Origin: Candidatus Enterousia onthequi
GTDB lineage: Bacteria; Pseudomonadota; Alphaproteobacteria; Rs-D84
Reading direction: 5' to 3'
Length of the DNA stretch: 64,000 bases
Assembly (NCBI GenBank): GCA_018064365.1
Contig: JAGHVJ010000005.1
Span: 7,982 to 71,981 of the forward strand
Positions 8,842 through 51,117 of this stretch are shown here, piece after piece. Position numbers and translations under genes: made by a program. The notes beneath the pieces are model-generated. The model made no database searches. It saw only the letters and a list, made by a program, of their open reading frames with translations, and was not told the DNA's origin. Positions within the stretch are counted from its first letter, which is position 1; the number at the start of each line of letters is the position of its first letter.

Positions 8842-9050
8842 TTGATTTTTCAGATTTGTTAATGTATTATGCATCTCGCACAGGGTGTTCTTGTGTGGGG
8901 AATCACAGCCCCGTTGGTGGACACGATAGAGGTCGTGTTATGGACCTCTCCAACCTAGGTTGGAGTGCGGTGAATATATTGAATAAATCGCTCAATTCTT
9001 ACCAATTGCTGTGAAACTCCAACCATCTATTTTTAGATGGTTTTTTGTTT
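8842..9050 (+). promoter_or_regulatory. Candidate promoter plus ~170-nt structured leader or small RNA, ending in an intrinsic terminator just before the 9068 ORF
   Basis: Promoter: TTGATT (8842-8847), 17 nt spacer, TATTAT (8865-8870). Hairpins: GGGG/CCCC 8897-8912, AGAGGTC/GACCTCT 8928-8949, CTCCAACC/GGTTGGAG 8948-8965. A second CTCCAACC at 9017-9024 overlaps the terminator AACCATCTA-TTTT-TAGATGGTT (9021-9042), which is followed by a T-run. Confidence 0.4.
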
Positions 9051-9067: not shown

Positions 9068-9391
9068 ATGGTGTCGAGATATGATTCTAATTTTATAGAA
9101 AAACAAACAAAACAAATAAATGGTATATTGGATAATTATCAAAAATCTATGCCATTGGGGTTGGTTGACGAGTTTAAAAAGTTGCGCCCAAAAATTTTGG
9201 AAAAATTGTTGGTACATTATCCAATGGATGTTTTCGAACAGCCTGAAAAATTATGTCGTGATATAGAAATCTTGATTGTTGTTATAGCGTATGATACGGC
9301 GCAGATTACACGGTTCAAGAAACAAAGTGAAATTTTAAAACAAATTCATAAATTTGCGTTGGAACAAGTGCAAAAAAATTTGAGAAAATAA
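9068..9391 (+). CDS. Hypothetical protein (107 aa)
   Basis: Intact ORF with AGGGGG RBS 5-6 nt upstream of the ATG. No family recognised. Confidence 0.5.
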   Translation: MVSRYDSNFIEKQTKQINGILDNYQKSMPLGLVDEFKKLRPKILEKLLVHYPMDVFEQPEKLCRDIEILIVVIAYDTAQITRFKKQSEILKQIHKFALEQVQKNLRK

Positions 9392-9410: not shown

Positions 9411-9484
9411 TGGTGCCCTAAGCAAGAATCGGACTTGCGACTCGTCCTTACCAAGGACGTGTTTTACCACTAGACTATTAGGGC
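9411..9484 (-). tRNA. tRNA-Thr (anticodon GGU), CCA encoded
   Basis: Manual cloverleaf on the reverse complement. Acceptor GCCCTAA/TTAGGGC. D-loop AGTGGTA. Anticodon stem CGTCC/GGACG with loop TTGGTAA. T-arm GCAAG-TCCGATT-CTTGC. Discriminator A, then CCA. Confidence 0.9.
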
Positions 9485-9542
9485 AACTGGGGCTATTATA
9501 TCGGGTTTGCTGTAAAAAGCAACAAAAAACGATTAAAAATAA

Positions 9543-9570
9543 TTGCAATTAAAAAAAACTCTGTTATAAT
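9543..9570 (+). promoter_or_regulatory. Sigma70-like promoter for the CAU tRNA
   Basis: TTGCAA (9543-9548), 16 nt spacer, TATAAT (9565-9570). The tRNA 5' end lies 11 nt downstream. Confidence 0.55.
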
Positions 9571-9580
9571 GCGTTCACTT

Positions 9581-9657
9581 GGCGGGATAGCTCAGCTGGT
9601 TAGAGCAGTGGAATCATAATCCACGTGTCGGGGGTCCGAGTCCCTCTCCCGCTACCA
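9581..9657 (+). tRNA. tRNA with CAU anticodon (elongator Met or lysidine-type Ile2, not initiator), CCA encoded
   Basis: Acceptor GGCGGGA/TCCCGCT (G1-U72 wobble). D-arm GCTC-AGCTGGTTA-GAGC. Anticodon stem GTGGA/TCCAC with loop ATCATAA. T-arm GGGGG-TCCGAGT-CCCTC. Lacks the initiator-specific 1:72 mismatch and the three G-C pairs in the anticodon stem. Confidence 0.9.
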
Positions 9658-9664
9658 AGATAAT

Positions 9665-9687
9665 GACCGATTTTGTCGGTCTTTTTT
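9665..9687 (+). terminator. Intrinsic terminator after the tRNA
   Basis: GACCGA-TTTTG-TCGGTC followed by TTTTTT. Confidence 0.7.
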
Positions 9688-9703
9688 GTTTTATAAATAA
9701 ATG

Positions 9704-9732
9704 TTGAAAGTTTTGTTTTTGGGGTATAAAAT
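9704..9732 (+). promoter_or_regulatory. Candidate promoter of the aspS leader
   Basis: TTGAAA (9704-9709), 17 nt spacer, TAAAAT (9727-9732). This would start the transcript ~10 nt before Stem I of the T-box. Confidence 0.45.
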
Positions 9733-9751
9733 ACTCTTGTTTGATTTAAAT

Positions 9752-9913
9752 CGTGTGATGATACGACTGACAACCGTGGAGCGCGTTTTGGGTCTGGCCA
9801 AAAGTAAAAAAGCAGGGTGGCACCGCGCGAAAAAATCTTAGCGCCCCTGGATTTTAAGATTGAAATCGGTGCCGGAAAATTCAATTAAAGCACCGAAATT
9901 AAATAACAAGGTG
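9752..9913 (+). promoter_or_regulatory. T-box riboswitch (tRNA-Asp sensing) controlling aspS
   Basis: GGGTGGCACCGCG at 9815-9827 is embedded in a canonical antiterminator: A1 9813-9817/9845-9849, bulge UGGCACC, A2 9825-9828/9841-9844. Upstream is a K-turn-like stem at 9752-9785 with GAC in its apical loop. Lies directly upstream of an aminoacyl-tRNA synthetase gene. Confidence 0.8.
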
Positions 9914-9920
9914 TTAAAAA

Positions 9921-11699
9921 ATGTTATCTTTGAAATCTAAATACAGAACTCATACTTGTGGTGAGTTGAATATCAGCAATGTTGGCGAAGTCGTGACATT
10001 GTCTGGTTGGGTACATCGTAAACGCGATCACGGGTCGTTGTTGTTTGTGGACTTGCGTGATAATTATGGTATTACACAATGTGTGTTTGATGGGGGCGAT
10101 GAAAATCTGGAAAAAATTCGTCCGGAATCAGTGGTGCAAATCACAGGTCGTGTTGTCGCGCGTGAAGTAGAGGCGATAAACGATAAAATCCCAACAGGTC
10201 ATATTGAAATCCAGGCTTCGGCAAGTGATGTTAAAATTTTAACTAATTCCGAAGTGTTGCCTTTCCAAGTGTTTGGCGATGAAGAAACATCCGAAGAATT
10301 GCGTTATAAATATCGTTTCTTGGATTTGCGTCGTGAAAAATTACATCACAGTATTTTAATGCGCAATAAAATGATGAAATGGTTGCGTGATAAAATGTGG
10401 GATTTGGGTTTTTCAGAATTTCAAACTCCGCTTCTTACTGCGGATTCACCCGAAGGTGCGCGTAGTTTCTTGGTGCCATCACGTTTGCATCATGGTAAAT
10501 TTTATGCGTTGCCCCAAGCACCACAAATGTTTAAACAATTGTTGCAAGTGTCTGGGTTTGACCGTTATTTCCAAATTGCGCCATGTTTTCGTGATGAAGA
10601 TTTGCGTGCGGATAGATTGTTGGAATTTTACCAATTAGATATGGAAATGTCTTTTGTAGATGTGTCTGATATTCAGGCCGTTGGTGAAGAAATTATGCCG
10701 GAAATGGTTAAAACTTTTGCACCTGATGCAAATGTGTATCTAGCAATTCCGCATATATCTTATGATGATGCAATGTTGAAATACGGGTGCGATAAACCGG
10801 ATTTGCGTAATCCTATTTTAATCAGTGATGTGACGGAAATTTTCCGTGGTTCTGAATTTGGGATTTTTGCAAATGCAATTGAAAACGGCAGTGTTGTGCG
10901 TGCTGTGCCGGCACCAAATACCGCAGACCGTCCACGTTCTTGGTATGATAAATTGGTCGAATATGCGGTTAAAGAATTAGGTTTAGGCGGATTGGGGTAT
11001 ATCATTTTTGCCGATGAAGCCAAAGGGCCTGTCGCTAAGAAATTGGATACGGCGCGTATTGAAAAATTGCATGAAATTGCAGGGGACAATTCTTCGTTGT
11101 TCTTTATATGTGATAATGTTGAAAATGCAGCACGTGCAGCGGGCAAATTGCGTAATAAATTAGGTGCAGATTTAGGATTGGTAAATCCACGTGATTTCGC
11201 GTTTTGTTGGGTCGATAATTTCCCGTTCTTTGAACCGGATGAAGACCGCGCAGGTGCGCCAAAATTTACGCATAATCCTTTTTCGTATCCGATTGTGGAT
11301 TCTGTGGAAGAATTATCAACACGCGACCCATTTTCTATCAAGGCGGCACAGTTCGATATGGTGTTGAATGGTCTTGAAATTTGTAGTGGTGGTTTGCGTA
11401 ATTATAATCCAGAGATTATGAAAAAATGTTTCGAAATTGCTGGATATCCATTAGAGGCGGTCGAGAAAAACTTTTCTGGATTATATACTGCGTTTCAATA
11501 TGGTGCGCCACCGCATGGTGGATGTGCGTTTGGTATTGAACGTGTGGTGTCTGAAATTTTGGGCAATGGTGACAGTGTTCGTGAAATCGTTGCGTTCCCT
11601 GCAAATCAACGTGGTCAAGATTTGTTGATGGGATCTCCGAACGATGTTTCTGAACAACAGTTGCGTGATGTTCATATTCAGATTCGCAAGAAAAACTAA
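9921..11699 (+). CDS. aspS: Aspartate--tRNA ligase (bacterial type, 592 aa)
   Basis: N-terminal OB fold (RTHTCGELN...GWVHRKRDHGSLLFVDLRD). Class II motifs FQIAPCFRDEDLRADR and GGCAFGIERV. Bacterial insertion domain present. Confidence 0.97.
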   Translation: MLSLKSKYRTHTCGELNISNVGEVVTLSGWVHRKRDHGSLLFVDLRDNYGITQCVFDGGDENLEKIRPESVVQITGRVVAREVEAINDKIPTGHIEIQASASDVKILTNSEVLPFQVFGDEETSEELRYKYRFLDLRREKLHHSILMRNKMMKWLRDKMWDLGFSEFQTPLLTADSPEGARSFLVPSRLHHGKFYALPQAPQMFKQLLQVSGFDRYFQIAPCFRDEDLRADRLLEFYQLDMEMSFVDVSDIQAVGEEIMPEMVKTFAPDANVYLAIPHISYDDAMLKYGCDKPDLRNPILISDVTEIFRGSEFGIFANAIENGSVVRAVPAPNTADRPRSWYDKLVEYAVKELGLGGLGYIIFADEAKGPVAKKLDTARIEKLHEIAGDNSSLFFICDNVENAARAAGKLRNKLGADLGLVNPRDFAFCWVDNFPFFEPDEDRAGAPKFTHNPFSYPIVDSVEELSTRDPFSIKAAQFDMVLNGLEICSGGLRNYNPEIMKKCFEIAGYPLEAVEKNFSGLYTAFQYGAPPHGGCAFGIERVVSEILGNGDSVREIVAFPANQRGQDLLMGSPNDVSEQQLRDVHIQIRKKN

Positions 11700-11718
11700 A
11701 TCCGTAAAAAAGAAAATG

Positions 11719-11745
11719 CCCACGATTTTTCGTGGGTATTTTTTT
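11719..11745. terminator. Intrinsic terminator between convergent aspS and the AsmA-family gene
   Basis: CCCACG-ATTTTT-CGTGGG followed by TATTTTTTT. An A-rich run on the other side allows bidirectional use. Confidence 0.75.
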
Positions 11746-11747
11746 GT

Positions 11748-14222
11748 TTAATATTTTTCGTGGCTTCTGGTAAATGCGCGCATATATCCAATGTCCAGAT
11801 TGTTGATAATGTCTGTGATTGAATATCTGCGTCGGCCAGATTCGTTTATTGTCATTTCAACAGATGCAGGTTTTGGTGCGGTTCCACGCAATACGAATTC
11901 AAATGTTCCGGTCATAACACGGTTGTTTATAAATAATGCACCAACACCTTCGACATGTGGCATTGATATTGTCAAAGGTCTGGATGTTTCAAAGTTTCCG
12001 TTGTTATATATGCCTGAAATTTTTAATTTCTTTAATCTGGTTTTTCCAGATTCCAGTGCTGCGCCAAGTATGTATTCGGCGTTTAATATTGTTAAATTAT
12101 CTGCATTACTGTAAAACGCATCAAATCCAATTCCAGATATTGTGCCACCTGTAAATGTTGCGTCTATATCGCCAGATAGATTATAAATTAAATCGTTTGC
12201 GGTTTGACCAGATGTGTGTAATTTTATTTCTGCGGTAATGTTAGAATCGCTGATGTTTAATGGTGTGTCAAAGTTTAACAATTCATTAAACATTTGGAAT
12301 TTGTTTAATTGGATTGATATGTCATAATCAAATTTTTTCTTTTCTATGATACTTAACATATTACCACGATTTGTGTCAGATATGGAAAATATTTGGGTGT
12401 CTGGCTTTAATGAATACACAAAGTTTCTGTATATTGTGTCGTTCAAAATCATTGTGTCTGCGGATAAAGATATGTTTATTGGCAAATCAAACAATGTTGC
12501 AATTGGGTGATTTGTTAAAAATTTCATTTCTTCATAATTTTCTGTAAATATTGGGTTGATGAAATTATCAAGGTTTAAAACTTTTGTGTCCAGTGTTAAA
12601 CCAGATTTTGTTGCAACACCAGATAATATTTGGTCGCCAATCATTATGTTTAAATCACTGATTGTGTCGTTGTTAAATGTTCCTGATATTGCGTATCCCA
12701 TATCGTTCAAGAATCGTAAATCAATTCTGGGTAACCATTGTTTGAAATTTATGCCTGTGATTGTGAAATTGTTTTCGTTTATTTCTAATGTCCACTGTTT
12801 ATTTTGTGGGATAAATGTTTTTTTGTTGTTTTTATGCGTATATGTGCCGGGTTGATTAAACATAAAATCTGGTAAAAATTTTATGTCTATATTTAACTCT
12901 TTCAAAGTCATATCGTTTGCATAATTGAATTTTGGTAATATTTGTTTTGGGGTTATAACTAAATTTCCAGACATATCTGAAAATGTAAAATCTATGGTGC
13001 CATTTTCACCAATTCTGGAAACTAATTTCCTGATGGTTTTTAATGATGGCATTTTGTCTGTTGATGTTGCTGTTATGTGAAATATGCCGTTGTCTGATGT
13101 GATTTCGCCAGTAATGTCATTATAGTTAAAGTTTTTGCATTCCCATTTTTGTGGTGTGCCAGAAAAAATACAACTGAATTTTTCGTTTTTGTTGTTTATT
13201 TGTAATCTTGTGTTGTGGACACCGTTGTTGTCGTATGTGCCATCGAATAATTCGATGTTATCCATTATAACATGTTTTAATTCCAGTTTGTTGTTGTTGC
13301 CCAAAGCATTTAATTTCAAATTTGAAAACATATTGTCTTTGAATTTTATTTTCCCAGATAAATCAAGTGTGATACTGGTGTTATTTAACATGGTTTTATC
13401 GGTTGCGATAAAAGATATATCCATGTTCGCATTAGATGATGCAAAGTTTATATATTTAAATCCGTCGGGTAATAATTTTATTGAGCCTGTATAATTATTT
13501 GCATTTATATTTGTGAAATCAAATCCGTATTCGCCATCCCAATTAAATTCCATGGATAAAGATACGGGTTCATTGATTTTTGGATTTTCAAATTCAAACC
13601 ATTTGTTTATGTCGGGAGTGTTTATTGACATTTCGCCTGCTGCGCCACCATCAGGAAATAATGTTCCGCGTATGTGCAAATTATCATTACTGTTTATAAC
13701 AATAAATTCTCCGTTGTCATAGTTTAATTCGTATTTATGTTGTGGGGTACGAATTTGACCAGAAAATTTATTGTTTGATAAAGTTCCCCGAACAATTTTA
13801 TATTCGTGATTCATAAAATCCAGTTCTGTATTATATATGTTTATGTTGTGTGATACAGGTCGAGGAAATAATTCTGTGATTTTGATATTTCCGTTATAAA
13901 TATCCAAATCTGGGTTTAATTTTGCATCTTTGAGATTGAATATTTGTTTAAAAGGGACAGAAAAAGAAACCCTGTCAATTTTGCCAGTTGGAATTTCAAC
14001 ATCGTGCGCAACAATTGTACTGGTCCCCAATAAACTGAAATTTACATTGCCGTTGATTTTTGTTGTCCAACCGGTTTGTTCTTGGATTTTGGCCTGTAAT
14101 ACAGGTTTCATTTTGTTCAGGTTTAACAATGGCGGAATACATAATATCCCGATTACACTAAGTCCCAGAAATACAACGATTGTCCAAAATAAACGGCGTT
14201 TGTGTCTTGGTTTGATTTTCAT
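11748..14222 (-). CDS. AsmA-family outer-membrane biogenesis protein (824 aa)
   Basis: N-terminal basic stretch plus a single TM (RRLFWTIVVFLGLSVIGILCIPPLL), then a long beta-rich Asn/Thr-rich periplasmic region. Architecture is typical of AsmA/TamB-like proteins. The family call is by architecture. Confidence 0.7.
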   Translation of the reverse strand: MKIKPRHKRRLFWTIVVFLGLSVIGILCIPPLLNLNKMKPVLQAKIQEQTGWTTKINGNVNFSLLGTSTIVAHDVEIPTGKIDRVSFSVPFKQIFNLKDAKLNPDLDIYNGNIKITELFPRPVSHNINIYNTELDFMNHEYKIVRGTLSNNKFSGQIRTPQHKYELNYDNGEFIVINSNDNLHIRGTLFPDGGAAGEMSINTPDINKWFEFENPKINEPVSLSMEFNWDGEYGFDFTNINANNYTGSIKLLPDGFKYINFASSNANMDISFIATDKTMLNNTSITLDLSGKIKFKDNMFSNLKLNALGNNNKLELKHVIMDNIELFDGTYDNNGVHNTRLQINNKNEKFSCIFSGTPQKWECKNFNYNDITGEITSDNGIFHITATSTDKMPSLKTIRKLVSRIGENGTIDFTFSDMSGNLVITPKQILPKFNYANDMTLKELNIDIKFLPDFMFNQPGTYTHKNNKKTFIPQNKQWTLEINENNFTITGINFKQWLPRIDLRFLNDMGYAISGTFNNDTISDLNIMIGDQILSGVATKSGLTLDTKVLNLDNFINPIFTENYEEMKFLTNHPIATLFDLPINISLSADTMILNDTIYRNFVYSLKPDTQIFSISDTNRGNMLSIIEKKKFDYDISIQLNKFQMFNELLNFDTPLNISDSNITAEIKLHTSGQTANDLIYNLSGDIDATFTGGTISGIGFDAFYSNADNLTILNAEYILGAALESGKTRLKKLKISGIYNNGNFETSRPLTISMPHVEGVGALFINNRVMTGTFEFVLRGTAPKPASVEMTINESGRRRYSITDIINNLDIGYMRAFTRSHEKY

Positions 14223-14267
14223 TCTCTTTCCCTTGTATTTTGATTATACTGTATTATATTTATATTT

Positions 14268-16259
14268 GTGAATAAAAAAAGTATATTTAATCTTGAATCT
14301 GATTATGCCCCAATGGGGGACCAGCCAAATGCCATACGCGAATTGGTTGACGGTGTTGAACATGGTCGGCGGTCCCAGGTTTTGTTGGGCGTGACGGGGT
14401 CGGGGAAAACATTTACAATGGCAAATGTTATTGCAGAATTGTCGCGGCCGGCATTGTTGATGGCACCTAATAAAATCTTGGCGGCCCAGTTATATACGGA
14501 AATGAAGGCTTTTTTCCCGCATAATCATGTTGAATATTTTGTTTCTTATTATGATTATTACCAGCCCGAGGCATATATTCCTACAACAGATACTTATATA
14601 GATAAAGATGCAGCGATAAATGAACAGTTAGACCGTATGCGGCACAGTGCGACGCGTGCAATGTTAGAAGAACGCGATGTTATTGTTGTGTCGTCTGTGT
14701 CTGCTATTTATGGTATGGGGTCGCCTGAACAATATTCGTCTATGCGGTTGCCATTAAATGTTGGTGATAAAATTGGTGTTGGTGATGTAATTCGTTCTTT
14801 GGTTGATATTCAATATAAAAGAAACGATGTTGCGCCTGCACGTGGTGATTTTCGTGTGCGTGGTGATGTGTTGGATTTGTTCCCGTCGCATACGGCGGAT
14901 ACGGGATGGAAAATTTCTTTTTGGGGTGATGAAATAGAAGAAATTTGGGATTTTGATACTTTGACTGGGGCTAAGTTGCATAAATTAGACAGGGTGGTTG
15001 TTTATCCCAATACTCATTATGCAACACCAATGCCGTCTGTATTACAGGCGATTGAAAATATTCGTCGTGATTTAGATGAACGGTTGAGATATTTTCATGA
15101 CAATATGAAGTATGTCGAAGAACAAAGATTACGCGAACGCGTGAATTTTGATATTGAAATGATGGAAACAACTGGGACTTGTCGTGGAATTGAAAATTAT
15201 TCGCGATATTTATCTGGGCGTTTGCCGGGACAACCACCCCCGACTTTGTTTGAATATTTACCACGTGATGCGGTTTTATTTATAGATGAAAGTCATGTGA
15301 CTGTGCCACAAATTGGTGCAATGTCGCGTGGGGACCGTGCGCGTAAAGAAAATCTGTCGCATTATGGTTTTCGGTTGCCGGCCTGTGTTGATAATCGGCC
15401 ATTGACTTTTGAAGAGTGGGATGCATTACGTCCACAAACTATATTTGTATCTGCAACACCGGCGCAATGGGAATTAGAACAATCAAATGGTGTTGTGTCA
15501 GAGCAAGTAATTCGTCCAACAGGATTGTTGGATCCGGTATGCGAGGTGCGACCAATCGAACACCAGGTTGATGATTTGTTGGAAACTTTGAAAAAAACAC
15601 GTGGACGTGCGCTGGTTACTACATTGACCAAAAAAATGGCAGAGCAATTAAATGATTATCTGAATGAAAATGGGGTCAGGGCGCGTTATCTGCACAGTGA
15701 TATTGAAACATTGGAACGCATAGAATTGTTGCGTGATTTGCGATTGGGTAAATATGATGTTTTGGTTGGAATAAATTTATTGCGTGAAGGTTTGGATGTC
15801 CCAGAGTGTGAATTGGTTGCGATTATGGATGCGGATAAAGAAGGATTTTTGCGTTCTACGCGGTCTTTGATTCAGACGATTGGGCGTGCGGCACGAAATG
15901 CAAATGGACGTGTGATTTTATATGCAGATAATATGACAGAATCTATGCGTGCGGCGTTGGAAGAAACTGCGCGTCGTCGCGAAATTCAAATGAAATATAA
16001 TGCAGAACACGGCATTGTCCCGAAAACTGTGTCCAAGGCCGTATTTGCCGAGGTTGGCGATAAAGATGAAAAAGTGGACAAGAAACGCAAATTTGTGTAT
16101 AATTCTGATGGTGCATGGGACGCGGCCAGTTTGCGCAAAGAAATTGCTGCGTTGACGAAACGTATGAAAAAATGTGCAGAAAATCTGGAATTTGAAGATG
16201 CGGCTGCAATTCGTGACACGATTAATAAAATGCAAGACGATTTGTTATTATTAGAATAG
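14268..16259 (+). CDS. uvrB: Excinuclease ABC subunit B
   Basis: YAPMGDQPNAI, Walker A GVTGSGKT, DESH box, helicase motifs, C-terminal UVR domain (EFEDAAAIRD). GTG start. Confidence 0.97.
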   Translation: MNKKSIFNLESDYAPMGDQPNAIRELVDGVEHGRRSQVLLGVTGSGKTFTMANVIAELSRPALLMAPNKILAAQLYTEMKAFFPHNHVEYFVSYYDYYQPEAYIPTTDTYIDKDAAINEQLDRMRHSATRAMLEERDVIVVSSVSAIYGMGSPEQYSSMRLPLNVGDKIGVGDVIRSLVDIQYKRNDVAPARGDFRVRGDVLDLFPSHTADTGWKISFWGDEIEEIWDFDTLTGAKLHKLDRVVVYPNTHYATPMPSVLQAIENIRRDLDERLRYFHDNMKYVEEQRLRERVNFDIEMMETTGTCRGIENYSRYLSGRLPGQPPPTLFEYLPRDAVLFIDESHVTVPQIGAMSRGDRARKENLSHYGFRLPACVDNRPLTFEEWDALRPQTIFVSATPAQWELEQSNGVVSEQVIRPTGLLDPVCEVRPIEHQVDDLLETLKKTRGRALVTTLTKKMAEQLNDYLNENGVRARYLHSDIETLERIELLRDLRLGKYDVLVGINLLREGLDVPECELVAIMDADKEGFLRSTRSLIQTIGRAARNANGRVILYADNMTESMRAALEETARRREIQMKYNAEHGIVPKTVSKAVFAEVGDKDEKVDKKRKFVYNSDGAWDAASLRKEIAALTKRMKKCAENLEFEDAAAIRDTINKMQDDLLLLE

Positions 16260-16272
16260 GGTGGGGGTTGAT

Positions 16273-16686
16273 ATGAACGAAGTTATTTTGCCAGATGTAA
16301 ATGCTACGCGTGCGTGGGCGCGTGAATTTGCCAAAACTTTGCATGCGCCGGTGACGGTTGCGTTGCATGGTGATTTGGGTATGGGAAAATCAGAAATTGC
16401 ACGTGCAATTATTCAAGAATTGCGCGGTGGAAATACTGTTGTGCCGTCGCCTACATTTACAATTGTGCAGAATTATGATGGGATTTCTCATTTTGATTTG
16501 TATCGTGTGACCGATGCGTCTGAATTGGAAGAAATTGGGCTGAGTTATGCAATTCAAAATGATATTACTTTGATAGAATGGCCGGATGTTGCGTCAGCGA
16601 TGTTGCCAAAGAATACTATTCATCTTTATATATCTTCGTGTGGTGTTGATTGCGATATGGGTCGCAAGGTTGTTATAAAAAAATAA
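16273..16686 (+). CDS. tsaE: tRNA t6A37 biosynthesis ATPase TsaE
   Basis: GDLGMGKSEIARAI P-loop, SPTFT, HFDLYR motifs. ~137 aa from ATG 16273. Confidence 0.85.
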   Translation: MNEVILPDVNATRAWAREFAKTLHAPVTVALHGDLGMGKSEIARAIIQELRGGNTVVPSPTFTIVQNYDGISHFDLYRVTDASELEEIGLSYAIQNDITLIEWPDVASAMLPKNTIHLYISSCGVDCDMGRKVVIKK

Positions 16687-16747
16687 TATCAGAAATTTTT
16701 TTGTTGTGCAGTGTGGTATGGTGGTAAAGCCCATGAAACCCGTTTTG

Positions 16748-16975
16748 AAATGGGTAAAAAAGTGTCGCAAAAAACCTAGGTTTTTTGACAAGTGTTTTTT
16801 TTAGTTTTTTTCAATTTTTTTAATTTTCGGTTTTTTAGCAAAATCAAAGGGTTATAAAATCCGGGCTTTGCACGGCAAAGTGTCGCAAAAAAACCTAGGT
16901 TTTTAGTATACTATTTACAAAGGGAAAAAACTAAGGAAATCTAAGGAAAAATTAAAAGTTTGGGAGAGTAAAAAA
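16748..16975 (+). repeat. 228-bp conserved upstream module, copy 1 (about 95% identical to 51139-51366). Contains two copies of GTGTCGCAAAAAACCTAGGTTTTT
   Basis: Base-by-base comparison with 51139-51366 gives about 12 mismatches. Internal 24-mers start at 16762 and 16880. Each carries the 16-bp palindrome AAAAACCTAGGTTTTT. TATACT at 16907-16912. GGA-rich 5' UTR. Confidence 0.9.
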
Positions 16976-17935
16976 TTGTCTAAAAAGCATATGTTTTTGA
17001 ACGTTTTTTCAAAAATCACACTTTTTGCGTGTGTGTTTTGTGCGTTTTTTATTTCGCCCGTGTTCGCCAGTTTGCCAGCCGGTTATACAGAATTAGAATA
17101 TATCGAATCCAGTGGAACACAGTATATCGATACGGGGATTGTTATAAATTCTTCTAATATTTCAAATGTAAAGTTAGAGTTGATAAATGCCTGTGCAGGT
17201 AATAATTCTGGAAGTATCAGTGGTATATCAAACAACAATATAAAACTGTGGCAAGGACTAACGGCTGTTGGCGCAGGTAGTGCTGATGCGGTGATATATT
17301 ACAGTACAGGGAATTCAGAAAACGGCATAAGTAAAAAAACAGCAAGAACCGATTTTTATAAGTATGTTATAGATACAGCAAACGGAATTTGGGGTATGTA
17401 TAATTTGGACAATTCGGTTGTTTATGAGAAGAACGATATTGTATTTTCAACCACAGAAACTGGTAATACAAAATACGGGTTGTTCGGATTTTACAGGGAC
17501 GCGTATTTCAGTACATCATCTTATGCTCAGAAAATATCATCATTTAAGGCAACGGTAGGTGGAACATTAGTAATTGATTTAATCCCTGCCAGGCGCAATT
17601 CAGATAATGTAGTTGGTATGTATGATTTGGTTTCTAATACATTCAAAAACAATTCAGGCTCTGGTTCGTTTATTGCTGGGCCGGTGGCGGAAATCAAAAT
17701 TGCTACAACAAAAATGGTTGATGAAGAATTTGCGGCGGCGGAGGCAAAATTAGCAACAACTGTTCAAACGATTGAAAGTGTTGTATCACGCACGATTGCT
17801 CAGACCGGACAGATTCAGATATTACAAGATACAAAACAAACCCGTCCTGATGAATCGTGTCCTGCAAATATGAAATGTTTACTTGTTCAAGATGAAGACG
17901 GCACACCGCATTGGTACCCCATCATCGAACCATAA
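16976..17935 (+). CDS. Secreted protein of a paralogous family (conserved signal peptide/N-terminus and C-terminal 80 aa, variable centre), copy 1, 319 aa
   Basis: TTG start after a GGGAGAG RBS. Signal peptide ...SPVFA/S. LPAGYTELEYIESSGTQYIDTG motif. C-terminus nearly identical to the 51367-52392 product. Confidence 0.8.
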   Translation: MSKKHMFLNVFSKITLFACVFCAFFISPVFASLPAGYTELEYIESSGTQYIDTGIVINSSNISNVKLELINACAGNNSGSISGISNNNIKLWQGLTAVGAGSADAVIYYSTGNSENGISKKTARTDFYKYVIDTANGIWGMYNLDNSVVYEKNDIVFSTTETGNTKYGLFGFYRDAYFSTSSYAQKISSFKATVGGTLVIDLIPARRNSDNVVGMYDLVSNTFKNNSGSGSFIAGPVAEIKIATTKMVDEEFAAAEAKLATTVQTIESVVSRTIAQTGQIQILQDTKQTRPDESCPANMKCLLVQDEDGTPHWYPIIEP

Positions 17936-18539: not shown

Positions 18540-18768
18540 CAGTGCGTTTGCGCACTGTCTCTTCCTTTATGAAAGAAGGAGTACCCGCATTAGCGGGGGA
18601 GGTAATTGTGAAATGTTTGTTTTAACTGGTGTAAAATAATAATTATAAATGAAAGAATAATAAAATTTTTTATGGCGACTGTCGTCGCCGTGCACAATTA
18701 CCCCGTCTTGCTCGCTTCGCTTGCAATCCACCCCTTCTTTCATAAAGAAGGGGACGGTGACGTGGCGG
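18540..18768. repeat. Compound GC-rich palindromic element: two blocks of hairpins around a ~60-bp AT-rich core
   Basis: Left block hairpins: CAGTGCG/CGCACTG, CTCTTCCTTT/AAAGAAGGAG, CCCGC/GCGGG. GGTAATTGTG (18601-18610) is inverted to CACAATTACC (18693-18702). Right block hairpins: GGCGAC/GTCGCC and the perfect CCCCTTCTTT-CAT-AAAGAAGGGG (18731-18753). Confidence 0.75.
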
Positions 18769-18820: not shown

Positions 18821-21079
18821 TTATCCATTATTGTTTCCTGGAACGTATATATAACCACCAGAATTGCTTCTTTTGTTATTTTGTATTTGTTTGTTCAAAT
18901 CATTAATACCCTTGGCAATCCCATTAAAACATGTTTCTACATTATTTGTACTAATTGATTTACAGTTATCGGTATATTTGCTGTCCAATAAAGTTTTCAA
19001 AACTGTTGAATCTGCGGTCAATTGTTTTTTTACATTGTTTTTCAAATTCTTTTTTGTGACATATGGTTGTAATTTAGAATAATTTGAACGCAAGCATGAT
19101 AATGCTGTTTCTTCATCGATTGGGCTGCATGTGTCAAACTCTACCTTGTCTGTGGATTGGTCATCGTCGGATGATGTGCCGCCGGCAACCTGGACAGATG
19201 CCTTTAATACTTCTTTTTCCAACATGACCTTTAATTGTTTAATCATTTGTTCCAGTGTTGCGTATTGTTTATACATTTGTTGTGCAATCACTGTTGTTTT
19301 CAATGCGATGATTTCGTTCATTTTTTCGCGGTCTTCGGATTTTGTTATTTCGTCATTCTTTGTAAATCCCGCGTTCCATGCGTGCGTATCACACAGTGCA
19401 AATACCGGATCAACATAAGAAATATCTATATCCAAATCATAACATGATGATTTGCATTTTTCGGAATCTGTGCCAGGTACATTTTCACAACATGCACCTT
19501 TATCTTTGGCATCTTGGCCCAATGCCTTGGAAACGGTTGCGGCTTTTAATTTATTAATCGCATTTTCTTTGGTGGTATCAAAACCCAATCCACACATTTG
19601 TGCCGCATCATTTGCACATGAGTTGTTGTTTGTAGTTACTATTATATCTGTGCAGTTGGATTTATGTTTTAATGAGCCCTCGGTTTGATTTAACAAAATT
19701 TCCAACAAATCGATATCGATGCCGGATTTATTTTTACTGCTGCTGCGGCGACGGCGAATAAGGCCGTTGTTGATACTGTCGCTGGCACAACCGATACGCA
19801 CAGAACCCGTGGATGATGCGTCGGGATTTAAGATTTTTTCTTGGATTGCGCCATCGTTTGGGTCCAGGTATTTATTCGGTGTGCATGCAATCAAATCTTC
19901 GGGTGGAATAACATTTCCTTCATAACAATCGTGTCCTCCACGAGTGATACCATTATTTTTGCTGGATTTATGTGTGTCTTTTATGCAATTATCTTCATAT
20001 TTATATGTTGGTAAACCGGATTCACATTTTCTGCTTTCTCCTTCGCCAGTGCATTTTTCAGCATAATTCCCGCGGCAAACGTATTCAGCCCAGCGGTTGC
20101 AAGAGCCACTGAAAAACATATAAATATTACCCAAATCGACACCGACCGATTGTGCGGTGAACAATGCGTCGTCCAGGTTGTCCGCCAATGCGTCGTATGG
20201 TTCCATAAATTTGTTTGCCAATTCGCGGAATTTTGCAACACGTTTTGGGGCACTGCAATTATTTCCATTGACCTCGTTACATTTGGCATAGCGGAACGCG
20301 TCACGCATTGTTGTTTTCAAATTATTCAAACTTTGGTCGACGCCTTCCATACTGGTTAAAATTTGTCCCGTTATTGTTGCACGCGCAATCACATCATCCG
20401 ATACACCCGATTTTGCCGCCGCTTCTTGCGCAGCCGTCAAACCAGTTCCCGGATTAGCCTGGACTGCCTGCGCTTGTACCTGTGCCGACGCCGCAGCCGC
20501 AGCCGCAGAAATTGCATCTTGGTTACTGCGTTGAGATTCCGCCAACTGTTGTTGCAAAGAATCTATTTGTGCGCTGTTTTGTTGTTGCATGGATGCCATT
20601 TGTTGCTGCATCGATTGTAATTGTTGTTGCAACGCCGCATTATTTTGTTCCGCCGCCGCGGTGGCTGCCGCCGCGTTTGCCGCCGCCGCATTTTGTGCCG
20701 CGATTGAATCAGATACCAATTGTGCCGCGATTGCGTTTATTAAATCGTCACCGTGTTTTTTGCATGTTGCATTTGAATTTACACATCCCGCAACAATCGG
20801 TTTTGCAATATCCATATTTGCACAACCGCCACCCGAACATTTGGGCGACGCACATCGCAAAATCAAAGAATTACAATTTCCAAAATCTGCCGTAGCCTTG
20901 GGCGACGCCGCATTATTACGCGGATTTGTTGCGTTGTTCCACTGATTACCAACCACCGACCCCATAGAACCATTATATTGGGTTAAATTACTGCCCGCGG
21001 TTTGCGCAATGGGTGCCGCCGCAACCGCAAATGGCGCGCATAAAAACAAAGTCGAAAAAATTTTAATGAACGTTCTCAA
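18821..21079 (-). CDS. Large secreted Cys-rich protein with an Ala/Gln-rich coiled-coil-like region (752 aa), function unknown
   Basis: Signal peptide MRTFIKIFSTLFLCAPFAVAAAP. About 40 Cys scattered through it. AAQNAAAANAAAATAAAEQNNAALQQQLQSMQQQMASMQQQ low-complexity block. No family recognised. Confidence 0.8.
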   Translation of the reverse strand: MRTFIKIFSTLFLCAPFAVAAAPIAQTAGSNLTQYNGSMGSVVGNQWNNATNPRNNAASPKATADFGNCNSLILRCASPKCSGGGCANMDIAKPIVAGCVNSNATCKKHGDDLINAIAAQLVSDSIAAQNAAAANAAAATAAAEQNNAALQQQLQSMQQQMASMQQQNSAQIDSLQQQLAESQRSNQDAISAAAAAASAQVQAQAVQANPGTGLTAAQEAAAKSGVSDDVIARATITGQILTSMEGVDQSLNNLKTTMRDAFRYAKCNEVNGNNCSAPKRVAKFRELANKFMEPYDALADNLDDALFTAQSVGVDLGNIYMFFSGSCNRWAEYVCRGNYAEKCTGEGESRKCESGLPTYKYEDNCIKDTHKSSKNNGITRGGHDCYEGNVIPPEDLIACTPNKYLDPNDGAIQEKILNPDASSTGSVRIGCASDSINNGLIRRRRSSSKNKSGIDIDLLEILLNQTEGSLKHKSNCTDIIVTTNNNSCANDAAQMCGLGFDTTKENAINKLKAATVSKALGQDAKDKGACCENVPGTDSEKCKSSCYDLDIDISYVDPVFALCDTHAWNAGFTKNDEITKSEDREKMNEIIALKTTVIAQQMYKQYATLEQMIKQLKVMLEKEVLKASVQVAGGTSSDDDQSTDKVEFDTCSPIDEETALSCLRSNYSKLQPYVTKKNLKNNVKKQLTADSTVLKTLLDSKYTDNCKSISTNNVETCFNGIAKGINDLNKQIQNNKRSNSGGYIYVPGNNNG

Positions 21080-21150: not shown

Positions 21151-21240
21151 CACAACTGCCCCGTCTGACTCGCATTGCTCGTCATCCACCCCTTCTTTTT
21201 ACCCTGCGGGTAGAAAAGACGGGGAATATCCGGGGGAGGA
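21151..21240. repeat. GC-rich palindromic element whose first 48 nt match 18693-18740 (39/48), in the same orientation
   Basis: CACAACTGCCCCGTCTGACTCGCATTGCTCGTCATCCACCCCTTCTTT, then the hairpin TTTTTACCC-TGC-GGGTAGAAAAGACGGGG. The outer pair is CCCCGTCT/AGACGGGG. Confidence 0.75.
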
Positions 21241-26670: not shown

Positions 26671-27696
26671 ATGCCAAATAAAAAACCAAAAATTTCAATC
26701 ATTATTCCAATGTATGGTGTGGAAAAATATTTGCGCCGGTGTTTGGATTCTGTATTAAATCAAACTTTTACTGATTGGCAGGCAATTTGTGTTGATGATG
26801 GAAGCCCGGACAAATCTGGGGAAATTGCAGAAGAATATGCCGGGCGGGATGAACGATTTGTTGTTTTGCATAAAGAAAATGGTGGTTTGTCTGATGCACG
26901 AAATTATGGGATGCCACATGCAACGGGTGAATACGTTATGTATTTGGATAGTGATGATTTTATTCATCCGCAAACAATGGAAATTGCATGGAATTTAGCA
27001 CAACGTAATAATAGTGATATTGTATCGTTTACTTATGATAGATTTTATCGCCCGCAATTGATGGTGTATCATAAATTGGGTTTGGATACAGATAATGTTG
27101 TGCCATTTGGTATTCGTAAAAAGTACAATATTGATAAAATAAAATCTAAAACAGTTATGGATGTTTATGAATATGCAACCGACAGTGCGCATAATGCATT
27201 TAACCAAAATCGCAAATGGTTGATTAAACATTGTCAGGTTTGGAAAAATATGTATCGCCGTGATTTGATTTCAGATATTCCGTTTATCAAGGGTATTTTG
27301 TTCGAAGATTTTCCTTGGTGGTCGCGCGTTATGTTGCGTAATCCGCGTGTTACGATTGCCCCATTGCCTTTGTATTATTATATTCCAAACTTTGGTGGAA
27401 TTGTGTTGTCTGCAAAACAATTACGTATTATGCAGAGTTTAATTGCAGGCATTAAAGATTCGTTTGTTTTGTATCGTGACCAGGCAAATGCGCACCAGAT
27501 GGAAAAGTGGTCGGAAAACTTTTTATGGTTCTTTATAAATTGGGCTTTTCGTAAGATTAAATATTTAAAAACTGATGAAGAATTAGCAATTGCGCATCGT
27601 GAATTTACCGATTTATATGATTTGGGGGTGTTTGAAAAGGTGCCAAAAAATCGCCGTAAATTAGCGTTAAAGATAATGGATTTTATTGGTAAATAA
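26671..27696 (+). CDS. Family 2 glycosyltransferase
   Basis: ISIIIPMYGVEKYLRRCLDSVLNQT, VDDGSPD, LDSDD motifs. Confidence 0.85.
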   Translation: MPNKKPKISIIIPMYGVEKYLRRCLDSVLNQTFTDWQAICVDDGSPDKSGEIAEEYAGRDERFVVLHKENGGLSDARNYGMPHATGEYVMYLDSDDFIHPQTMEIAWNLAQRNNSDIVSFTYDRFYRPQLMVYHKLGLDTDNVVPFGIRKKYNIDKIKSKTVMDVYEYATDSAHNAFNQNRKWLIKHCQVWKNMYRRDLISDIPFIKGILFEDFPWWSRVMLRNPRVTIAPLPLYYYIPNFGGIVLSAKQLRIMQSLIAGIKDSFVLYRDQANAHQMEKWSENFLWFFINWAFRKIKYLKTDEELAIAHREFTDLYDLGVFEKVPKNRRKLALKIMDFIGK

Positions 27697-27698
27697 AA

Positions 27699-28697
27699 AT
27701 GAAGACAGCAAAAGTATCAATTATTATTCCGATATATAATGTGGAAAAATATTTGCGGAGGTGTTTGAATTCGGTTGTGGCTCAGACATTTCAAGATTGG
27801 CAGGCGATTTTAATTGATGATGGCGCGACCGATAAGTCTGGTAAAATTGCTGATGAATATGCTGGGCGGGATGAACGATTTGTTGTTATTCATAAAAAAA
27901 ATGCGGGGGTGTCAGCTGCGCGTAATGATGGGTTGAAATTGGCGTGTGGTAAATATGTTTTGTTTGTGGATTCTGATGATATGATACATCCCCAGTTGTT
28001 GGAAATCACCTGTGGTTTTGCAGAAAAAAATGATGCGGATATCGTGTCGTTCAGATATGATAAGGCTTTGTACAATTCTGTGGCACGTGGTATGGATGTT
28101 GATATATGTTTGAAAATGTTTAATTGTAAAAATTATGATTTAAATAAATTGTGCTATAAAAAAACAGATAATTTGATTCGTTTTGCTACAGAAAAAAATC
28201 ATAGTTTTGGTGCGTTTAAAATAAGACATTGTTATCCTGTTGTGCATTTATATAAACGTAGGTTGTTAAAAAATATTAAGTTTGATACTAATATTAAAAT
28301 TGCAGAAGATTTTCCATTTTGGACATCTGTATTGTTGAAAAATCCGCATGCGATTATTTTGACTGTGCCTTTGTATTTTTATATTCCGAACAATCTGTCG
28401 GCATTAAAGACGGCAAATGCACTGAAAGAATTTAGTAATATTTTAATGGCAACAATGGCAGCTTTTAATTCTGTGATGCGTGCGAATCCGGATAAAAAAT
28501 GGATGAAGATATGGAATCGGGAATTTTTATGGCCATTTATAATAACATCTATGCGTTTGGGGTATGAAGTTGATGATGTTGATTTTGTAAAAAAACAATT
28601 GTCAGAAATGGTAATGATTGGTGCATTGGATAATCCACCGACTTTGCAGGCGCGTAAATACAAACGCAGAATTCAAAGATTTATATCTGGAAATTAA
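27699..28697 (+). CDS. Family 2 glycosyltransferase, tandem paralogue of the preceding gene
   Basis: VSIIIPIYNVEKYLRRCLNSVVAQT, IDDGATD, VDSDD. The N-terminal ~100 aa are clearly similar to the 26671-27696 product. Confidence 0.85.
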   Translation: MKTAKVSIIIPIYNVEKYLRRCLNSVVAQTFQDWQAILIDDGATDKSGKIADEYAGRDERFVVIHKKNAGVSAARNDGLKLACGKYVLFVDSDDMIHPQLLEITCGFAEKNDADIVSFRYDKALYNSVARGMDVDICLKMFNCKNYDLNKLCYKKTDNLIRFATEKNHSFGAFKIRHCYPVVHLYKRRLLKNIKFDTNIKIAEDFPFWTSVLLKNPHAIILTVPLYFYIPNNLSALKTANALKEFSNILMATMAAFNSVMRANPDKKWMKIWNREFLWPFIITSMRLGYEVDDVDFVKKQLSEMVMIGALDNPPTLQARKYKRRIQRFISGN

Positions 28698-36214: not shown

Positions 36215-36715
36215 TTATTTATTAAAATGTTTTTTTAATGTGTTGTATGCGGTTGTTATTTTGGTAAATTCGGTCGCAGCAGATGATTTATCGGCGGCGG
36301 TGTCGGGGTGATATTTTTTTGCAAGTGCGCGATATTTTGTGCCAATTTCACGCCAACTGGCGGTTAACGGTAATCCCAGCGTTTTTAATGCCCCACTGAT
36401 AGATGTTGGTAATTTGCTTTTTGGGGGCGTATAGTCAAATTGACCGCGGCCAGATAAAAAATCGTTCAAGAATTTTATGTAATCTGCTGTGTCTGCATTA
36501 GATTTTGTTTTTTCTTTTAATGGTGCGCCAAATGTTTCGCGTTCCCAGTCCGCTTCGATTTCTTCGGGGGTCATATCGGCATAATAATTCCAGTTTTTAT
36601 TGTATTCAGCCGCGTGTTCTGGACAGAAATGCCAATATTCGCGCAAATCACGATTTTTTGGCGCACGACATGTGCCGGCCTTGGTGCAGCCTGGGTGATC
36701 ACATTTTGTTATCAT
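36215..36715 (-). CDS. J-domain (DnaJ-like) protein with an N-terminal Cys/His cluster
   Basis: C-terminal J domain with HPD (YRALAKKYHPDTAADK). N-terminal CDHPGC...CRAP...HFCPEH. Confidence 0.7.
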   Translation of the reverse strand: MITKCDHPGCTKAGTCRAPKNRDLREYWHFCPEHAAEYNKNWNYYADMTPEEIEADWERETFGAPLKEKTKSNADTADYIKFLNDFLSGRGQFDYTPPKSKLPTSISGALKTLGLPLTASWREIGTKYRALAKKYHPDTAADKSSAATEFTKITTAYNTLKKHFNK

Positions 36716-37581
36716 TATTGTTTGACCTTTGCTTTATTTGATAATGGATGATAATTTTCCACAGTTGTGCGTAATTGTTCAGGCAAAACATGGGTATAAA
36801 TTTGTGTTGTTGAAATGTCTTCGTGACCCAACATTGTTTGTATTGCGCGCAAATTCGCGCCATGTGATAGTAAATGCGATGCAAACGAGTGGCGTAATAC
36901 GTGCGGCGATACGCGGTTTGGTTCGATGCCGGCAAGTATCGCACATTTTTTTAGTATTTTGAAAAATCCATCGCGTGTTATGTGGCCTGTTTGGCCTGTG
37001 CCAGGAAAAATGTATTTAGAATCGGTGTCTCCGCGTATATCCAGCCATTTATGTAATGCCATAATGGCGCCTTGGTGCATCGGAACAATGCGTTCTTTGG
37101 CACCTTTGCCATGGATTAGCAAGTGGTCGCCCAGATTTGCGGTCATGGGTAATTCGCATAATTCAGATACGCGTAATCCTGATGCGTAAACCAGTTCCAG
37201 CATTGCATGCAGACGAACGGAATTTTTTATGTCGCCCGCAGATGATATTAGTAATTCTATTTCATCAACAGATAATAATTTTGGCAATGGTCGTGTGCGT
37301 TTTGGTAATTCTAAATTTTTTGTTGGGTTTGTTTGAATTATTTTTTCCAACATTAAAAATTTATAAAATCCACGTAGACTACTTGCCTTGCGAGCAATAG
37401 AAGATGCACGGTCGGGCAGGTTGGATAAATAATTTTGTATGTCGTCTGGGGTTGCGTTTATTAATCCATTTGGTAATGCATCGTTCGCATGATTCAAATC
37501 TGATGCATAACTTTGGATTGTTTTTTCGCCACGACCACGTTCGGCAGATAGTGCTTCGAGAAAGATATCTATATAATTCAT
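36715..37581 (-). CDS. xerD: Tyrosine site-specific recombinase XerD (XerC not excluded)
   Basis: ASGLRVSEL, HGKGAKERIVP, LRHSFASHLLSHGANLRAIQTMLGHEDISTTQIYTHV. Housekeeping context. TAATG overlap with the downstream J-domain gene. Confidence 0.75.
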   Translation of the reverse strand: MNYIDIFLEALSAERGRGEKTIQSYASDLNHANDALPNGLINATPDDIQNYLSNLPDRASSIARKASSLRGFYKFLMLEKIIQTNPTKNLELPKRTRPLPKLLSVDEIELLISSAGDIKNSVRLHAMLELVYASGLRVSELCELPMTANLGDHLLIHGKGAKERIVPMHQGAIMALHKWLDIRGDTDSKYIFPGTGQTGHITRDGFFKILKKCAILAGIEPNRVSPHVLRHSFASHLLSHGANLRAIQTMLGHEDISTTQIYTHVLPEQLRTTVENYHPLSNKAKVKQ

Positions 37582-51093: not shown

Positions 51094-51117
51094 AAAAGTG
51101 CCAAATGGCACTTTTTT
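51092..51117 (+). terminator. Intrinsic terminator
   Basis: AAAAAAGTGCCA-AA-TGGCACTTTTTT. Confidence 0.8.

Follow-up and report, generated by a model that had tools for sequence, protein, structure and literature searches.

A probable miniature invertible promoter upstream of lectin-like surface-protein genes in Candidatus Enterousia onthequi

The question raised by the 64,000-nucleotide stretch of Candidatus Enterousia onthequi DNA analysed here (GenBank assembly GCA_018064365.1, contig JAGHVJ010000005.1, positions 7,982 to 71,981 of the forward strand; hereafter the window) is why two dispersed genes for secreted proteins are preceded by almost the same non-coding DNA. A preliminary description of the window had reported two modules of equal length and about 95% identity, and our alignment agrees with it: copy 1 (16748-16975) and copy 2 (51139-51366) are each 228 bp long and match without gaps at 95.2% identity. 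The palindromes within them had been proposed to be the operators of a dimeric regulator. Comparison with related genomes, in which homologous segments are found in both orientations between identical flanks and a serine recombinase gene lies beside the switches, argues for a different answer. We consider it likely that each 228-bp module is a miniature invertible promoter (inverton) together with a 5′ untranslated region (UTR), switching genes for lectin-like surface proteins on and off.

In the proposed mechanism, a small serine DNA invertase of the Hin/Gin kind would recombine the two A6-7-CCTAGG-T5-6 palindromes of each module, crossing over at a 2-bp TA. The 119-bp segment between them would move the -35 element (TTGTCA) and an A/T-rich upstream region, while the -10 element (TATACT), the 5′ UTR and the gene would stay fixed outside the segment, with a recombination site lying in the promoter spacer. 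In the assembled state, the -35 element would lie at the far end and point away from the gene, leaving TCGCAA-18-TATACT as an OFF or basal configuration; inversion between the TA centres would then give TTGTCA-18 bp-(TGg)TATACT, the ON configuration. Dozens of such switches would be served by a single invertase whose gene lies elsewhere in the genome, the outcome being combinatorial phase variation of a secreted lectin-fold family in a genome of less than 1 Mb.

The architecture of the sites can be read directly in the window. The perfect palindrome AAAAACCTAGGTTTTT, said to occur twice per module, was found exactly four times (at 16770, 16889, 51161 and 51280; 0.05 expected by chance), and the inverted-repeat ends of each module consist of one 16-18-bp palindrome per end, 119 bp apart in both copies. 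The distal site reads GTGTCGC-A6-CCTAGG-T6 and the proximal site GTGTCGC-A7-CCTAGG-T5. A 24-mer had been counted twice per module at a distance of 118 bp; the exact 24-mer occurs once per module, its second copy being off by a 1-nt insertion or deletion (indel), and the distance from CCTAGG to CCTAGG is 119 bp. The tetranucleotide CTAG is about 10-fold rarer in the window than expected from base composition (20 observed, 213 expected), and four of the five CCTAGG sites in the window fall inside the two modules. Both window sites are centred on a symmetric TA (CC-TA-GG) and share the outer left arm, and they lack the asymmetric central dinucleotide of the Hin/Gin type.

In copy 1, the predicted distal recombination site covers about 26 bp (16765-16790; GTCGC-A6-CC-TA-GG-T6-GACA, TA centre 16777-16778); we take it to be hix-like, and sites of this type bound the segments that occur in both orientations in relatives. 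The predicted proximal site (16884-16909; TCGC-A7-CC-TA-GG-T5-AGTAT, TA centre 16896-16897) fills the promoter spacer. Measured from TA to TA, the predicted invertible segment extends over 119 bp (16778-16896) and, as judged from an in-silico flip and scoring, is assembled in the OFF orientation. The corresponding features of copy 2 are a distal site at 51156-51181 (TA centre 51168-51169), a proximal site at 51275-51300 (TA centre 51287-51288) and a 119-bp segment at 51169-51287, predicted to be OFF like that of copy 1.

The cassette recurs well beyond the window. Contig 1 of the metagenome-assembled genome (MAG) GCA_024402795.1 (locus tags MJ164_) is collinear with window positions 9411-17141 at 97.4% identity, and this MAG is therefore regarded as conspecific. 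All seven of its family genes with readable upstream DNA carry the cassette, six as complete two-site modules (L005, L046:7164, L048, L050, L067 and L068) and one in a single-site version (L046:1409). In the latter, at L046 1404-1440 upstream of a minus-strand gene (110-1333), the outer-left arm (GTAAAAAGTGTCGC-A6) and the -10 side (T5-GGTATACT) meet directly at the lone CCTAGG site. A scan of species-representative genomes placed the motif upstream of two paralogues in the MAG RUG13870, and a two-site pattern scan of metagenomes returned 40 loci, about half of them rumen or gut contigs of matching architecture, that is, outer flank, site 1, about 100 nt, site 2, -10-like box, UTR and family gene, in this order. 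About half of the matches (L006-L008, L013-L014, L016-L018, L020-L023, L025, L029, L031-L032, L036, L040 and L045) are unrelated tandem or dispersed repeats from other environments and were set aside. With at least 19 loci of this architecture in the sister (RUG) genus, the earlier suggestion of a dedicated cassette common to a gene family is borne out.

Between the window genus and the RUG genus, the inter-site sequence has drifted to about 65% identity and the 5′ UTR to about 64-68%, while both palindromes and the -10 box have been retained. Two A-tract-CCWWGG-T-tract palindromes, 107-119 bp apart and upstream of a -10-like box, are common to the window genus, the RUG13870 genus and further lineages; their spacing is 119 bp in the window, 109 bp in RUG, and 107, 108 or 111 bp in other lineages. 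This pattern of conservation indicates that the palindromes are the conserved, functional part of the cassette. The two-site unit also precedes other genes, namely those for other secreted proteins at L012 and L030 and for YadA-anchor trimeric autotransporter adhesins at L024, L026, L042 and L069. No CCTAGG module was found upstream of the 495-aa family member of higher-GC relatives (L052-L056, P0024 lineage), and the switch is therefore restricted to low-GC lineages.

Further evidence comes from natural inversion in relatives that carry the module. When loci L009 and L019 were oriented by their downstream genes, the upstream and downstream flanks matched at 0.82 and 0.93 identity, respectively, and the L009 interior matched L019 only as its reverse complement (0.87 versus 0.57 forward); the interiors of 18 other modules of the same genus are likewise opposite to that of L009. 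L011, the L009 locus from another sample, joins A-type and B-type junctions and then reaches the contig end, which we interpret as probable assembler output from a mixed population. A second case is provided by the recombinase P0146, encoded on 22 contigs from independent samples and assemblers, of which 10 places were read. The flanks are 90-100% identical in nine of the ten, the tenth (L058) being a diverged relative in the forward state. Six of these nine have the 105-bp interior in forward orientation (L059-L062, L064 and L065; 0.96-1.00), and the other three have it as the reverse complement (L057, L063 and L066; 0.98-0.99 when reverse-complemented, compared with 0.58 forward). The breakpoints coincide with the centres of ACAAAAACC-AA-GGTT and AACC-TT-GGTTTAAA, sites of the window type in inverted orientation with an asymmetric middle dinucleotide (AA versus TT). 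Taken together with L026, the inverted homologous segments comprise L009, L026, L057, L063 and L066, and these alignments demonstrate, at the level of assembled sequence, that homologous segments invert naturally between like flanks, exactly at the palindrome centres.

The content of the segment suggests what inversion would achieve. A conserved AAAAAA-(G/A)TGG-TTGAC-like motif is present at one segment end in every lineage examined; its distance from the site is constant, and an A6-8 run precedes the TTG motif in all of them. The motif takes the form TTGTCA in the window genus (including L067 and L068, whose TTGTCA end is as in the other MAG modules), TTGCTT or TTGCAA at the family genes of RUG, TTGACA, TTGACT or TTGATT in adhesin switches, and TTGAAT or TTGAAA at L012 and L030. 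Immediately beyond the proximal site, at a distance that does not vary among them, all lineages have a -10-like box (TATACT, TATAAT, TACCAT or TACACT), so that only part of the promoter and not the whole, as in Mpi-type switches, lies within the segment. Where the TTG end is next to the gene, the two elements are 17-18 bp apart, as in L026 (TTGACA-17-TACCAT) and in L057, the ON state of the P0146 lineage (TTGACT-17-TACCAT). The TTG end is turned towards the gene in L009, L026 and L057 and away from it in the other 13 of 16 tabulated modules; read as 13 OFF and 3 ON, these numbers would be as expected from consensus assembly of a phase-variable family with many paralogues.

As assembled, the window modules present TCGCAA-18-TATACT, and a promoter scan of the modules in this state found no plus-strand sigma-70-like promoter. 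An in-silico flip between the TA centres (16778-16896 and 51169-51287) yielded TTGTCA-18-TATACT in copy 1 and TTGTCA-18-TGgTATACT in copy 2, and the same flip of six window-species modules (two from the window, four from the MAG) produced TTGTCA-18-TATACT with a score of 10/12; a recognisable promoter thus appears in silico in one orientation only, TTGTCA flipped versus TCGCAA assembled. The predicted flipped-junction sequences are CACTTGTCAAAAAACCTAGGTTTTT(A/G)GTATACT and GTGTCGCAAAAAACCTAGGTTTTTTTGCGACAC. The -35 hexamer TTGTCA lies on the minus strand at 16786-16791 in copy 1, to be placed by inversion 18 bp upstream of the fixed -10 box TATACT (16907-16912, plus strand, outside the segment), and at 51177-51182, minus strand, in copy 2, where sequence and cross-lineage position support it and the plus strand carries the extended -10 box TGgTATACT (51295-51303). 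Because the TTG end is far from the gene, with TCGCAA in its place, the window copies as assembled are inferred to be OFF or basal; the TGn-extended -10 of copy 2 and of most MAG copies could allow some basal expression. The T-tract-rich half of the copy 1 segment (16792-16840, minus strand) reads as A-tracts upstream of the -35 hexamer once inverted and may then serve as an UP-like element. The plus-strand TTGACA named in the preliminary description (16785-16790) does lie there and overlaps the -35 hexamer. A role for it as a forward -35 was rejected, since no usable -10 lies 16-19 bp from it and the RUG genus does not conserve it; it is the other strand, TTGTCA, that would supply a -35 for TATACT, and only after inversion.

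A candidate enzyme is encoded next to the switches of relatives. A serine recombinase gene (196-200 aa) directly adjoins them in five related lineages (L024, L026, L027, L042, L057-L066 and L069-L075). It was first detected at L024, L026, L027 and L042 by tblastn with a Hin query, to which its identity is only about 29%. P0123 and P0146, both from relatives, combine the Resolvase (PF00239) and HTH_7 (PF02796) domains of a small serine recombinase, with the active-site Ser in the N-terminal catalytic domain and the HTH at the C-terminus, and carry the motif MIYGYCRVST at the start. Among solved structures, the Gin invertase 4m6f is the closest relative (E = 2e-10 over the full length). The 120 best-matching database clusters, from about 8000 hits, are 76-100% identical to the recombinase of these lineages, and some sources name them "DNA invertase Pin-like". 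In two lineages, the gene is divergent from a YadA adhesin gene with the switch in between, and at L027 the invertase-adjacent switch drives a member of the window protein family. Site and internal segment are common to many dispersed modules, among them an invertase-adjacent adhesin switch; as the interior of the P0126-lineage adhesin switch is homologous to the RUG-genus family-gene switches, one enzyme plausibly serves adhesin and family-gene switches alike. Wherever it was seen beside YadA_anchor adhesin genes (L057-L066, L069-L072, L024, L026 and L042), the invertase gene was always divergent from them with the switch between, and the complete adhesin genes were very variable in length (513-798 aa).

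Several observations weigh against the invertible-promoter reading. All eight modules (two in the window, six in the conspecific MAG) share one orientation, and no flipped module was found among them. No serine recombinase was detected by tblastn in the 64-kb window and six conspecific contigs (101 kb); the orientation and invertase searches in this species covered about 145 kb of a genome of about 0.85 Mb (~17%). None of the best 120 of about 8000 serine recombinase matches came from GCA_024402795.1, nor did any from the ten clusters checked by accession, and a synteny search with the neighbours of the P0146 lineage gave no invertase locus for the window species. In the RUG genus, a hexamer count fails to separate the two states (assembled TCGAAA-17-TATAAT, 10/12; flipped TTGCTT-18-TATAAT, 9/12), and the ON assignment there is based on homology of the TTGAC end. 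In the window genus, the two sites match as direct repeats too (24/25 nt) and their TA centre is symmetric, for which deletion is expected besides inversion. Hin-type segments are about 1-3 kb long, far longer than the 119 bp of the window. Moreover, Hin-type enzymes require Fis and an enhancer (PMC4513852).

The single orientation in the window species would also be explained if the palindromes were paired operators of a classical dimeric factor, either a repressor or an activator of the MerR type that binds the spacer, perhaps with looping of the 119 bp and with no rearrangement at all. The perfect 16-18-bp palindromes, conserved across genera, suit such a factor, as do the position of the proximal one at the promoter, where it fills the -35/-10 spacer, and the spacings of 119 and 109 bp, which differ by about one helical turn. 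However, spacings of 107, 108 and 111 bp in other lineages do not keep the helical phase, no candidate regulator gene was seen adjoining any module, and the conserved adjoining gene encodes a serine recombinase and not a regulator. Since homologous segments are inverted exactly at the palindrome centres between identical flanks, an operator without rearrangement appears improbable. The two functions need not exclude each other, as a bound invertase dimer would itself occlude the promoter. Intrinsic bending by phased T-tracts, considered as a way to loop the 119 bp, was discarded because the 10-11-bp periodicity lacks significance, being reached in 464 of 2000 shuffles.

Even if the segment inverts, the catalyst might be the XerD-like tyrosine recombinase of 288 aa encoded in the window (36715-37581, minus strand; Pfam Phage_integrase and Phage_int_SAM_1), acting on 11-bp arms around a 6-bp CCTAGG as in mycoplasma inversions. 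No other recombinase gene was found in the window, the site can be divided into an 11+6+11 layout, and the inversions of the Mycoplasma penetrans mpl genes are ascribed to Xer-like enzymes (PMC2268961). The protein passes the NCBIfam 'tyrosine recombinase' subfamily cutoff (297 versus 279 bits) and scores below the XerD and XerC equivalog cutoffs. Nevertheless, one Xer-type enzyme is expected anyway for chromosome dimer resolution, and this protein is more probably such a resolvase than an invertase. The site centres of the P0146 lineage differ solely in the middle dinucleotide (AA versus TT, inverted), which fits a 2-bp serine-type crossover, and it is a serine recombinase that adjoins the switch in five sister lineages. 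The tyrosine enzyme is judged improbable as the catalyst. Equally doubtful is the proposal that the switches are relics whose invertase is lost or silent, the cassettes being kept alike by gene conversion and the genes expressed constitutively from a weak or extended -10 promoter. It would account for the eight uniform modules and for the lack of an invertase in the ~145 kb sampled; most copies have a TGn-extended -10 that could work without a -35, and module plus signal peptide are 92-95% identical between the window paralogues and nearly unchanged in conspecific paralogues, which fits concerted evolution. Yet none of the 16 palindromic sites of the window species is disrupted, all eight modules retain the TTGTCA end, just ~17% of the genome was sampled, and a majority-OFF consensus is what assembly of a phase-variable family with many paralogues would be expected to report.

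Returning to the invertible promoter, a broader proposal can be put forward tentatively: the ~0.85 Mb genome of Rs-D84 bacteria such as Candidatus Enterousia and its relatives may run at least 30 split-promoter mini-invertons with one Hin-like invertase and without Fis or an enhancer, the symmetric TA centre also allowing deletion, which would lock the gene, and recombination between loci. The single site at L046:1409, where the two outer arms are joined, is the product that deletion of an invertible segment would be expected to leave and thereby favours the invertible promoter itself; under the broader proposal it may be a locked state. Inter-locus recombination could help to shuffle the variable lectin-like cassettes.

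The duplicated module is real, and the similarity is not confined to it. The match extends about 165 nt past the start codon, across the sequence for the signal peptide and for the LPAGYTELEYIES.GTQYI motif, as far as about 17140 and 51531, and it returns at the 3′ ends, where the last ~250 nt of both genes are 83% identical (repeat D3). The DNA 5′ of 16748 and of 51139 is unrelated and the neighbouring genes differ: copy 1 has UvrB/TsaE on one side and RuvC on the other, and copy 2 has FtsK and two unannotated open reading frames (ORFs) on one side and RarA on the other. The two genes are therefore dispersed paralogues with a common 5′ cassette and not a segmental duplication that includes the flanks, which these differences rule out; with the further loci in relatives, a module limited to two loci with duplicated flanks, named beforehand as what would overturn the cassette idea, is not what was found. 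Upstream of copy 2, the preceding gene ends in a terminator-like hairpin read from the sequence (51098-51117, plus strand; GTGCCAAATGGCAC followed by T6), which would insulate the module from read-through transcription, and the L005 and L009 modules are likewise preceded by terminator-like hairpins. Similar to the palindromes, the smaller elements listed earlier were all located. The predicted 5′ UTR of copy 1 (16919-16975, plus strand), its start inferred from the -10 box, is kept in conspecific paralogues and not in the RUG genus; it contains the GGA motifs AAGGGAAA (16920-16927) and CTAAGGAAA (16931-16939 and 16941-16949) and a Shine-Dalgarno sequence, GGGAGAG (16962-16968). The 6-bp hairpin CTTTGC-ACG-GCAAAG lies within the segment (16866-16880, plus strand); its equivalent is kept or partly kept in L046, L048, L067 and L068, weaker in L005, lost in L050 and absent from the RUG genus. 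As hairpin and GGA motifs are confined to the window genus, they were dropped as conserved RNA signals. An Rfam scan of the window found only two tRNAs, with no match inside the module.

The regulated genes encode secreted proteins of 319 aa (gene 1, 16976-17935, plus strand) and 341 aa (gene 2, 51367-52392, plus strand). Gene 1 specifies a signal peptide, a ConA/pentraxin-like beta-sandwich, a long helix and a small Cys-containing C-terminal domain; gene 2 shares the N- and C-terminal parts and differs in the centre. The proteins are 50% identical overall, in keeping with the divergence of the gene centres noted previously. Neither has a match in Pfam or NCBIfam. An AlphaFold model (mean pLDDT 70) comprises a signal helix, a beta-sandwich (37-224), a long helix (247-285) and a small C-terminal hairpin, and the sandwich weakly resembles pentraxins, laminin-G modules and the sialic-acid-binding CBM40 (E about 2e-4 to 4e-3, TM about 0.5 on the target), suggesting with moderate confidence that the family consists of secreted or surface lectin-like proteins. 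The 759 database relatives of the two proteins come nearly all from gut and rumen alphaproteobacterial MAGs. At least 27 paralogues are present among the ~800 genes of GCA_024402795.1, and another MAG with family members carries the name Candidatus Enterousia onthequi. Enterousia, with genomes of 0.75-1.0 Mb, belongs to the order Rs-D84; these are uncultured, genome-reduced, fermentative bacteria with an obscure lifestyle, Enterousia living in farm-animal guts (PMC12306168). Between gene 1 and its orthologue at L067, the central regions (17141-17691 and 10166-10797) show no nucleotide similarity, the proteins have 319 and 346 aa, and the 3′ ends are just 85.6% identical, compared with 97.4% for housekeeping genes. 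This comparison indicates that the central cassette of a family gene at an orthologous locus is replaced within one species.

Other features of the window were recorded in passing. The window shows a strongly positive GC skew along its whole length (+0.2 to +0.37). Between a PagL-like gene and the ORF 9068-9391, near two tRNA genes, is an 18-bp perfect palindrome, CTCCAACCTAGGTTGGAG (8943-8975); it is kept in the conspecific MAG (L067, ~976) and has no Rfam match. Also beside the tRNA genes is a ~1-kb indel (window 9411-9418 versus L067 1439-2435), with an extra 286-aa ORF in the conspecific MAG. A 48-nt repeat of 81% identity (18693-18740 and 21151-21198) flanks a 752-aa ORF on the minus strand (18821-21079). 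It resembles a repetitive extragenic palindrome or a miniature inverted-repeat transposable element, with CCCCGTCT and, further on, ATCCACCCCTTCTTT, then AAAGAAGGGG, and a similar GAAGGGG motif occurs upstream of the L005 module. Two tandem family-2 glycosyltransferase paralogues (26671-27696 and 27699-28697) are 74% identical over a 300-nt stretch near their 5′ ends (repeat D2) and sit in a surface-polysaccharide cluster (Caps_synth, GT2 and RgpF).

If each paralogue and trimeric autotransporter adhesin has its own switch, variable attachment to host, partner cell or glycans would be central to the lifestyle of these bacteria, as in mycoplasmas. If true, an inverton of about 110 bp that splits its promoter and has hix-like sites would also represent a compact and portable switch design, and so short a segment would probe how close together two sites can be for a serine invertase to synapse them. 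For sequence databases, the consequence is that metagenome assemblies break or form chimeras at such sites (L011, L073 and L074) and report the majority orientation alone. Several metagenome contigs begin or stop precisely at a recombination site (position 1 of L073, position 1 of L074, position 11 of L075, and the contig ends of L010 and L011), and L011 is a junction chimera. A full-text literature search found no paper tying Rs-D84 or Enterousia to invertons or phase variation.

Known systems provide close parallels. In Bacteroides, a conserved serine recombinase flips 7-13 capsule promoters (10.1101/2022.10.31.514637). Like Mpi of Bacteroides fragilis, the system proposed here would combine a conserved small serine recombinase with many dispersed short invertible promoters of gut surface structures and combinatorial ON/OFF states. 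Unlike Mpi, it belongs to genome-reduced Alphaproteobacteria (Rs-D84), its targets are single protein genes and not polysaccharide operons, it is known from sequence alone, and only the -35/upstream half of the promoter lies inside the segment. Its sites are of the A-tract-CCTAGG-T-tract type, unrelated to the Bacteroides repeat consensus. Bacteroides segments measure about 170-230 bp, compared with 107-119 bp here, which to our knowledge would be the shortest invertible segments.

A second parallel is found in M. penetrans, in which each of 38 mpl genes, scattered on the chromosome, is thought to own an invertible promoter (PMC2268961, citing Horino 2003). The mpl (P35) system would share with ours a very small genome and a large, dispersed surface-protein family with its own short invertible promoter per gene; it differs in that the candidates there are Xer-like tyrosine enzymes, whereas a serine invertase is implicated here, and in that the proteins are unrelated. 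The mpl segment is 135 bp long with 12-bp repeats and contains the whole promoter.

Hin was reported to invert a 200-bp promoter segment between symmetrical hixC sites (PMC2427008). Similar to Hin/hix of Salmonella and Gin/gix of phage Mu, the switches of the relatives are accompanied by a small serine recombinase of the same architecture, and the P0146-lineage sites, with their AA/TT centre in inverted orientation, are like those of Hin and Gin. The window sites appear to resemble hix and gix sites, which are imperfect palindromes of about 26 bp with A-tract-CC-NN-GG-T-tract cores (hixL, TTCTTGAAAACCAAGGTTTTTGATAA). Unlike in Hin/Gin, the invertase gene lies outside the segment, there would be dozens of targets per genome, the window lineage has a symmetric TA centre, and the segment of 107-119 bp is about 10-fold shorter than Hin/Gin segments; a dependence of the window-type switch on Fis and an enhancer seems unlikely. 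The system is thus best viewed as a variant of the promoter-inversion logic known from Mpi and mpl that departs from several defining features of each.

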